IMG/VR virus record: IMGVR_UViG_2534681773_000024
Coordinates: 1 to 5,666 of that record
From: a virus
Taxonomy: Duplodnaviria; Heunggongvirae; Uroviricota; Caudoviricetes
Strand: one strand, 5' to 3'
Length of the DNA stretch: 5,666 bases
The translations under genes and the position numbers were made by a program. The notes under the pieces are model-generated. The model did no database searches, was not told where the DNA came from, and was given only the letters and a program-made list of their open reading frames with translations. Shown here piece after piece: positions 991 through 1,498 of this stretch (positions are counted from its first letter, which is position 1; each line of letters starts with the position of its first letter).

Positions 991-1260
991 CTATTTCATC
1001 CCGCCAATATTTTCCCACGTCCCGTCAGCACGCAGGATTTGCAGCGGTCTTACCACACACTGTATCTGCTTTTTATCTGCATCCAGTATCACCACCTGTG
1101 TGATTACCCTGTCCTGCTCTGGAATAATGCCATTCTCATCTGACTCCAGAATGTCTGCCGGTCCCAGTCGCAGTTGTGCTGTAGGCGACTGCACGTGTTC
1201 ACGGCCATCATGCTTTCCGCAACCACACAGACACTGCATAAGTTTTTTTAGTATATTCAT
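991..1260 (-). CDS. Hypothetical 89-aa protein; paralog of the side-tail-fibre C-terminal domain (possible fibre accessory or assembly factor)
   Basis: ATG at 1258-1260 (MNILKK...), TAG stop at 991-993. AGGAG lies 6 nt upstream of the ATG (minus strand ...ACAGGAGAATGACATG). The ATG is 1 nt after the TGA that closes the frame-shifted stf C-terminal domain. The protein aligns by eye to that domain (RLGPA-I-E---NG--P ... LD ... R-LQ-R-DG). The ORF-track extension to a TTG at 1392 (133 aa) is a Cys/Arg-rich out-of-frame read of the stf C-terminal coding region and is not used. Confidence 0.55.
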   Translation of the reverse strand: MNILKKLMQCLCGCGKHDGREHVQSPTAQLRLGPADILESDENGIIPEQDRVITQVVILDADKKQIQCVVRPLQILRADGTWENIGGMK

Positions 1261-1261
1261 G

Positions 1262-1498
1262 TCATTCTCCTGTTCTGCCTGTATCACTGCCCACTTCATC
1301 CAGCCCCTTAACATCCTGCAACGGCCCGTCACCAAACCTGACCTGCAAATGCCGAAACAGCCCCTGAACCTGTGTGGCATCTTTGGGGTCAAGAAAGGTC
1401 AGCCCGGTGATGAGTGCGCCATCTGTATCCGGGAACCAGCCATTGCTGTTTGTCTCAATAATGCTCGCCGGCCCCAGACGAAAACGGATTTGTGTCTC
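1262..1498 (-). other. stf: Side-tail-fibre C-terminal domain coding segment (78 codons plus TGA), displaced from the stf reading frame
   Basis: Hand translation of the minus strand in the frame with first codon bases at 1498, 1495 and so on gives [78 protein letters not shown] then TGA (1262-1264). It has no stops and resembles the downstream 89-aa ORF. Adding one G to the G6 run at 1498-1503 would join it to the collagen-like region as ...GRPGGETQIRF... Confidence 0.55.

Follow-up and report, generated by a model that had tools for sequence, protein, structure and literature searches.

A small gene that copies the tip domain of a collagen-like tail fibre forms a fixed pair with the fibre gene in lambdoid prophages and may encode an accessory partner of the fibre knob

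Why should a phage carry, directly behind the gene for its tail fibre, a second and stand-alone copy of the domain that ends that fibre? The question is raised by the 5,666-nt stretch of DNA analysed here (hereafter the window; positions 1 to 5,666 of the IMG/VR virus record IMGVR_UViG_2534681773_000024), all genes of which lie on the minus strand and represent the right end of the late region of a lambdoid prophage. Read along that strand, the window carries the tail tip gene J (3335-5666; matches to Phage-tail_3, Ig_J, Phage_Tail_Tip and Ig_GpJ_C), lom (2633-3232; match to Ail_Lom), a side tail fibre gene (stf; 1262-2568) that is disrupted here and whose open part matches Pfam phage_tail_N and Collagen, a small open reading frame (ORF) of 89 codons (991-1260; ATG 1258-1260, TAG 991-993), and a type III effector gene of the NleH/OspG kinase type (1-882; family match); an Rfam search of the window gave nothing. 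The fibre gene is of the EPclA type, i.e., it has the order PfN, coiled coil, collagen and PfC described by Ghosh et al. in 2012 (PMC3368898). The original prediction, made from the letters alone, was that the small ORF is a paralogue of the fibre C-terminus and is coupled to it in translation, and that its product could be a fibre assembly factor, a tip-associated factor or a spare receptor-binding cassette.

Judged from the two protein sequences, the paralogy of the small ORF and the fibre tip is real. The 78-aa C-terminal segment of the fibre (78 codons plus stop, 1262-1498, with the fibre's own PfC at about 1298-1489) and the 89-aa protein share 24 identities over 62 residues by BLASTP (39%; E 9e-14 in a single comparison), and both match Pfam PF06820 (Phage_fiber_C, i.e., PfC), for which the curated gathering cut-off is 25 bits, with 123.4 bits for the small protein (residues 28-89 on positions 1-64 of the 64-position profile; 994-1179, minus strand) and 121.1 bits for the fibre segment (residues 4-67). 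The resemblance, which had been noticed by eye, is thus not due to chance, and the two domains, which had been considered not assignable to a named family, in fact belong to the same one. The small ORF also covers the whole of PHROG 576, a 'tail fiber protein' family (residues 1-89 on positions 1-89 of 89, E 8.5e-59), and has no match in NCBIfam. In a relative with 97% identity, NCBI names the orthologue (WP_001023379) 'phage tail fiber C-terminal domain-containing protein', and the upstream gene in close relatives is named 'prophage tail fiber N-terminal domain-containing protein'. The small protein is known in exactly this form from 997 contigs.

The small protein differs from the PfC of the EPclA and EPclB fibres, which is of the same Pfam family and to which it is 39% identical, in that it has neither a collagen stalk nor a PfN domain and begins with a private N-terminal extension of 27 residues (1180-1260, minus strand), i.e., a predicted short helix (residues 3-11, taken from a low-confidence AlphaFold2 model) followed by a conserved C-x-C motif (C12, C14) and His17. 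The extension contains three cysteines (C10, C12 and C14) and not the four originally counted in the first 30 residues, the fourth (C68) being located inside the PfC domain; further, the family consensus has Arg at position 10, and only C12 and C14 are conserved. A lipoprotein or signal-peptide reading of this Cys-rich N-terminus, of the type of T5 Llp or phi80 Cor, was considered and rejected given Arg10 of the consensus. When 1.84 billion representative proteins were searched with a profile, 83 hits were obtained, nearly all of them fragments of the same E. coli family, and no homologue of the 27-residue extension outside the family; weak partial matches to CarboxypepD_reg and SprB repeat proteins seem to reflect a generic resemblance among beta-strands. 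AlphaFold2 monomer models, built on a shallow alignment of 17 rows, had low confidence (mean pLDDT 53 for the small protein and 57.7 for the fibre C-terminal segment) and show an all-beta pattern, plus the short N-terminal helix in the small protein; the all-beta prediction agrees with published circular dichroism data for the EPclA/EPclB PfC, and the AlphaFold model of the PfC domain in a recent preprint on phage phi24B was likewise without confidence. Sequence searches of the PDB found nothing with the small protein; the fibre retrieved collagens and an N-terminal tail-fibre fragment of 94 aa (9e7m) and nothing else.

It is important to note that the fibre gene is not intact in the window. 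The original prediction that the 78-codon segment should end the side fibre holds for the intact relatives, in which this segment is the PfC of the fibre (the intact 437-aa relative has profile matches to PfN, Collagen and PfC), but in the window the segment does not share the reading frame of the upstream part of stf. Two runs of six Gs, where relatives have five, account for this: the first +1 frameshift is located at 1535-1540 (G5 in 97 loci, G6 in the window only) and the second at 1498-1503 (G5 in 66 loci, G6 in 2), and the two extra Gs place the PfC-coding end out of frame so that it reads as a separate 78-codon segment. The window also shows a 9-nt in-frame deletion near 1659, within the collagen repeats, relative to two intact 437-aa relatives, and the fibre PfC has Leu in place of a conserved Trp. 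Gene J is damaged as well: an in-frame TAG interrupts it at 4602-4604, one C has been gained near 4577 and another lost near 3371. Prophage decay and sequencing errors in homopolymers are equally compatible with the four homopolymer-length changes within 5.7 kb.

The junction between the two genes is tight and conserved. The TGA stop of the fibre C-terminal frame (1262-1264) is separated by a single base (C1261) from the ATG of the small ORF, as originally described, and an AGGAG Shine-Dalgarno sequence (1267-1271), 6 nt before this ATG, is embedded in the last fibre codons. The prediction of a layout for translational coupling was borne out by the relatives: the junction, GGAGAATGAC directly followed by ATGAA, or a one-base variant of it, is present in 86 of 88 loci fetched via the small ORF, while the other two keep ...GAATGAC before the ATG and have upstream sequence unrelated to the fibre gene. 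The stop, one base, ATG arrangement is also annotated in phage 434, Stx2_EH1846 and 933W. No promoter-like site was found upstream of the small ORF on its coding strand, and a likely intrinsic terminator (948-978, minus strand; A-run, 7-bp GC hairpin and U-run; RNA fold of -24 kcal/mol, z -3.2), at which a simple terminator scan gave no call, ends the unit of fibre gene and small ORF; hence, the small gene is most likely transcribed together with the fibre gene. The hairpin is found 3' of the small ORF nearly everywhere among the loci, and variable cargo starts beyond it, e.g., effectors such as the NleH-type kinase of the window, NleC in Stx2_EH1846 and phage 434, and EspS in locus L002. The terminator and the effector gene occupy the place 3' of the fibre gene where a tfa might be sought, and the window has none there, in agreement with the original statement that no tfa of lambda type follows stf; none stood out, either, among the common downstream ORF clusters of the related loci when these were read by eye. 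A stretch of 67 nt directly after the small ORF in locus L001, annotated by NCBI as 'tail assembly protein', was dismissed as a trace of an ancestral tfa, as it covers the terminator region. In a related prophage, a tfa pseudogene remnant is annotated at another place.

The small ORF and the PfC-ended, collagen-like fibre gene form a fixed two-gene module. In a sample of loci fetched via the fibre, and thus independent of the small ORF, an intact small ORF comes next in 23 of the 27 PfC fibres that could be evaluated, and the remaining four have a disrupted copy that adjoins an open fibre frame. That is, none of these 27 lacks the small ORF altogether. Together with the junction in 86 of the 88 loci above, this bears on the question of whether the small gene follows collagen-containing stf genes. 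Conversely, none of 49 loci with a PfN match alone and no PfC (L116-L164) had the small ORF. Among 50,697 phage records, the small ORF was found in 296, which include Stx1 and Stx2 phages of both tail types, 933W (as L0122) and phage 434, and the gene pair is present in the long-tailed phage 434 and Stx2_EH1846 as well as in the short-tailed 933W. Among 5426 complete E. coli genomes, the small ORF occurs in 698 (6582 copies, median of 10 per positive genome) and the fibre PfC segment in 697 (6160 copies). Protein searches of 5.8 billion sequences and of 1.84 billion representative ones limit the small-ORF family to E. coli, E. albertii and Citrobacter rodentium.

The gene pair was already known from databases and one paper, and our results represent a confirmation, not a discovery, of it; new here are the dN/dS values, the 56% nucleotide identity of the two copies and the trace of ORF peptides in the phi24B supplement. 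Mondal et al. described in 2016 the 89-aa ORF68 of the Stx2 phage Sp5 and, using in-frame deletions of Sp5 genes, classed it as not essential for either plaque formation or lysogenisation on K-12 (PMC5155283). The Sp5 ORF68 (of the pair ORF67/ORF68, beside fibre gene ECs1228), L0122 of 933W and gp59 of phi24B resemble the ORF of the window in length, PF06820 domain and protein sequence (~92% identity), and they take the same position, directly after a PfC-ended collagen-like fibre. The fibres themselves differ, the short-tailed Stx2 phages having the 645-aa EPclB podovirus fibre and the window a 437-aa side fibre of EPclA type, frameshifted, in a long-tailed lambdoid prophage. For EPclA, Ghosh et al. 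reported that the isolated PfC trimerises by itself (SEC-MALLS), which makes it an autonomous trimerisation domain, and that rEPclA, the recombinant fibre, does not need the small protein to trimerise either (PMC3368898). Neither the paper on the phi24B lysogen transcriptome, where the fibre genes are not mentioned, nor a 2025 paper on EHEC phage proteomics, where the small ORF is not, takes up the subject.

The small ORF is under purifying selection. Pairwise dN/dS values (Nei-Gojobori), computed for two samples, one chosen via the small ORF and the other via the fibre, were 0.13 and 0.17, respectively, for the whole small ORF, 0.08 and 0.06 for its PfC part, and 0.28 and 0.40 for the N-terminal extension, at a synonymous divergence of about 0.12 for the small-ORF comparison, vs. 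about 0.25 for the C-terminal segment of the fibre itself. The PfC of the small protein is nearly invariant while that of the fibre is variable at many positions, and such invariance would suit a partner of something conserved better than a receptor-binding surface. It is possible, in principle, that the small ORF is a functionless relic of a tandem duplication or a domain replacement that hitch-hikes with the fibre gene; after all, it is non-essential, it is disrupted in four of the 27 prophage copies, and its family, confined to E. coli, E. albertii and Citrobacter rodentium, is very narrow. We consider this quite improbable for a gene with dN/dS of 0.06-0.17 at a synonymous divergence of about 0.12, whose start context is conserved and which is retained in inducible phages of two tail types and translated.

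Evidence for translation comes from the supplement to the 2026 preprint on the phi24B virion proteome, in which two peptides unique to the ORF, VITQVVILDADKK and ADGTWENIGGMK, are listed for purified virions with 3 peptide-spectrum matches (PSMs) each, vs. 47 PSMs for the fibre C-terminal peptide GLDEVGSDTGR. Therefore, according to this supplement, the small protein is made in phi24B and is at most a trace component of the virion; with a signal of ~6% of that of the fibre peptide, carry-over contamination is as likely as true virion association. The peptides, together with the purifying selection, establish that the small ORF is a real gene. The same supplement bears on the alternative that some ribosomes shift or read through near the fibre stop to make a longer fibre with two tandem PfC domains: its authors included two hypothetical fusions among the sequences searched and gave one row the label 'Spike or just gp59?', a matter that the text of the preprint does not take up. 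The frame of the small ORF is indeed open for 44 codons upstream of its ATG (ORF 991-1392 of the window), and tandem PfC-like units are structurally possible, as a distant metagenomic protein (P0162) has four such repeats in one chain, ahead of a collagen region, which indicates that PfC-like units can adjoin along a fibre. Nonetheless, a fusion is very improbable: the last fibre codons contain no slippery heptamer (X XXY YYZ) by inspection, Mondal et al. found no frameshift signal either (PMC5155283), the conserved AGGAG-N6-ATG points to independent initiation, and, among the phi24B peptides listed, the normal fibre end (GLDEVGSDTGR) is abundant and no junction peptide appears. In the low-molecular-weight band EA1829 of that supplement the fusion entry exceeds the fibre entry by one PSM, yet this difference can come only from a peptide of the small ORF and thus suggests, weakly, the free small protein.

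A different role, in which the product of the small gene would be irrelevant, was proposed by Mondal et al., namely an 'intragenomic reservoir' for fibre variation (PMC5155283), that is, a spare C-terminus that recombination could attach to the fibre to give it a different tip. Two rare chimeras lend this some credence, one with collagen repeats joined directly to a PfC of the small-ORF type (P0059; 4 member sequences) and the other with the small-ORF N-terminus ahead of a fibre-type PfC (P0122), but their junctions are located at short microhomologies and look like illegitimate deletions, and patches derived from the small ORF were not seen in the common fibre PfC alleles. The two copies share 55.6% nucleotide identity and their longest exact run is 9 nt, out of register, which leaves no substrate for RecA-type exchange; no inverted or direct DNA repeat connects them. 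Further, a silent cassette needs no conserved ATG, Shine-Dalgarno sequence or N-terminal extension, nor should its dN/dS fall below that of the fibre domain, which is expressed. Peptides of the small protein are, moreover, listed in the phi24B supplement. The comparison with known switching systems is similarly unfavourable: the Mu G and P1 C invertible segments and the diversity-generating retroelements also hold a second fibre C-terminal copy beside the fibre gene, whereas the copies in the window are in direct orientation and 56% identical in nucleotides, vs. near-identical template and variable repeats, and the repeats and ORFs of the window include no flanking inverted repeats, invertase or reverse transcriptase. 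Hence, we view a reservoir as rather unlikely, and the idea of a spare receptor-binding cassette in the original prediction is weakened as a present function by the conserved protein, start and junction and by the 56% nucleotide identity.

The position of the small gene invites comparison with the tail fibre assembly proteins, i.e., Tfa of lambda and those of Mu and P2 (Caudo_TAP), the genes of which are likewise located directly downstream of a fibre gene in a late operon, and the record of phage 434 labels the small ORF 'tail fiber assembly chaperone', apparently by position. In contrast to Tfa, the small protein is homologous to the fibre's own tip and is half of Tfa's size; it has no membership in the Tfa family, as Pfam, NCBIfam and PHROGs give only PF06820 and tail-fibre PHROGs; and, unlike in Tfa systems, the PfC fibre folds without the small protein and the Sp5 gene is dispensable. 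The original suggestion of a fibre assembly factor is weakened by the trimerisation of rEPclA and PfC alone (PMC3368898) and by the dispensability of ORF68 on K-12 (PMC5155283). A second comparison is with the gp38 adhesins of the T2, T6 and S16 type, also small proteins beside a distal fibre gene, with a potential seat at the fibre tip. Receptor-binding tips are generally expected to vary. The small protein, with a nearly invariant PfC, has no detected sequence similarity to gp38 and is present at trace level in virions. The tip-associated factor of the original prediction thus stands as a possibility, qualified by the trace amounts listed in the phi24B virion proteome.

A knob domain without a virion-attachment domain could also act away from the virion, as a soluble decoy or competitor that, released at lysis or within the infected cell, binds the target of the fibre tip and thereby keeps progeny off debris or modulates superinfection. 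Small receptor-blocking genes beside receptor-binding genes are known, e.g., llp in phage T5 and cor in phi80 and N15. The trace level in the virions of the phi24B supplement and the non-essentiality in the laboratory would suit such a role. On the other hand, the small PfC is only 39% identical to the fibre PfC and does not track its variable positions, making it a poor mimic; the consensus, MNILKKLMQRLCGCG, has no signal peptide or lipobox by inspection, its 7-residue would-be hydrophobic core containing Gln and Arg; PADLOC gave 0 families at E <= 0.01; and there is no promoter-like site for expression in the lysogen. We therefore regard a decoy as unlikely.

Hence, we tentatively favor the hypothesis that the small ORF encodes a non-essential accessory partner of the distal knob of the fibre, either a helper of assembly or stability or a transient cap. 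Under this hypothesis, the small ORF would share the transcript of the fibre gene, on which it is the final cistron ahead of the terminator, and would be translated by coupling, from a Shine-Dalgarno sequence in the fibre's last codons and with stop and start 1 nt apart. Its product, composed of a short helix at the N-terminus, the C-x-C motif and PfC, would carry no export signal and remain in the cytoplasm, where it probably forms a PfC-type trimer, given that PfC trimerises the fibre and nucleates its collagen helix; that is, by homology it would be a 'mini-knob' without stalk or virion-attachment domain. The mini-knob may then aid the assembly or stability of the fibre, or transiently cap its tip; on this view it would not belong to the virion in stoichiometric amounts, nor would the gene be a silent cassette kept in reserve. 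The accessory-partner reading is weakened by the non-essentiality of the Sp5 homologue, by the trimerisation of the fibre and PfC alone, by the four of 27 copies that are disrupted, and by the trace level in virions. A more specific version, in which the duplicated, stalk-less knob docks knob-to-knob on the fibre tip and templates or stabilises collagen nucleation at the C-terminus, or acts as a soluble protein released at lysis, with C-x-C forming an inter-chain disulfide or metal knot in the trimer, is, in our judgement, doubtful. We are far more certain of the gene itself, namely that it is real, translated and selected and belongs to a fixed module, than of the mechanism.

Finally, the evidence that the small gene is under selection and is translated, and that a plain recombination cassette is an improbable role for it, leaves fewer hypotheses to be considered. 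The module is found in about 13% of the complete E. coli genomes, mostly in lambdoid prophages of EHEC/STEC with genes for Shiga toxin and type III effectors, and the fibre and its companions affect the adsorption and spread of such virulence-carrying phages. If the more specific version given above, with a docking or soluble knob, is true, a protein that copies the knob of the fibre would represent an undescribed kind of fibre accessory factor.

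Immediately 3' of the small ORF (991-1260, minus strand), which encodes a stand-alone protein of the Phage_fiber_C (PfC, PF06820) type, lies an A-run followed by a GC hairpin and a U-run (948-978, minus strand), an arrangement that is conserved at the equivalent position in most of the related loci; it went unreported by a simple terminator scan. This element marks where the late operon of the phage gives way to type III effector genes, a block that is highly variable and comprises an NleH-type kinase in the window and NleC, EspS and others in the relatives. The NleH/OspG-type effector kinase gene (1-882, minus strand), located directly past the terminator, is intact despite the damage to the prophage's tail genes.

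Specifically, the tail tip gene J (3335-5666, minus strand) is disrupted in comparison with three related loci: it carries an in-frame TAG at 4602-4604 (after 'IELTPG'), has gained one C near 4577, and has lost one C near 3371, the latter altering its last dozen codons. Together with two G5-to-G6 changes in the side tail fibre gene stf (1498-1503 and 1535-1540), the two changes in J bring the homopolymer-length changes to four within 5.7 kb, a pattern compatible either with a decaying prophage or with homopolymer sequencing error. The collagen repeats of stf also show, in the region of 1659 (minus strand), an in-frame deletion of 9 nt relative to the relatives, that is, three codons or one Gly-X-Y triplet, in line with published work in which the length of the collagen domain was seen to differ by multiples of three residues.

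Among the related loci, one IMG/VR contig (2698536355_000019; L008) harbors two complete modules of fibre PfC plus small ORF (443-947 and 3644-4148), separated by 3.2 kb, with small ORFs sharing 90% and 99% identity with that of the window. P0162, a 565-aa protein encoded at 3505-5202 of a metagenomic contig (L165; Logan assembly of SRR17035117), contains four tandem repeats of ~75 aa each, followed by a collagen region; the second half of every repeat resembles the small-ORF type of PfC (VVVLDAD...LQVRRADGTWxEIP). P0162 is a distant relative, with an array of PfC-like units in a single chain.

Finally, five E. coli proteins (P0059, P0062, P0084, P0116 and P0122) are in-frame deletion chimeras, to which the small ORF contributes either its C-terminal part, fused to collagen repeats, J or Lom, or its N-terminus, fused to a fibre-type PfC. 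These chimeras are traces left in EHEC prophages by microhomology-mediated deletions.
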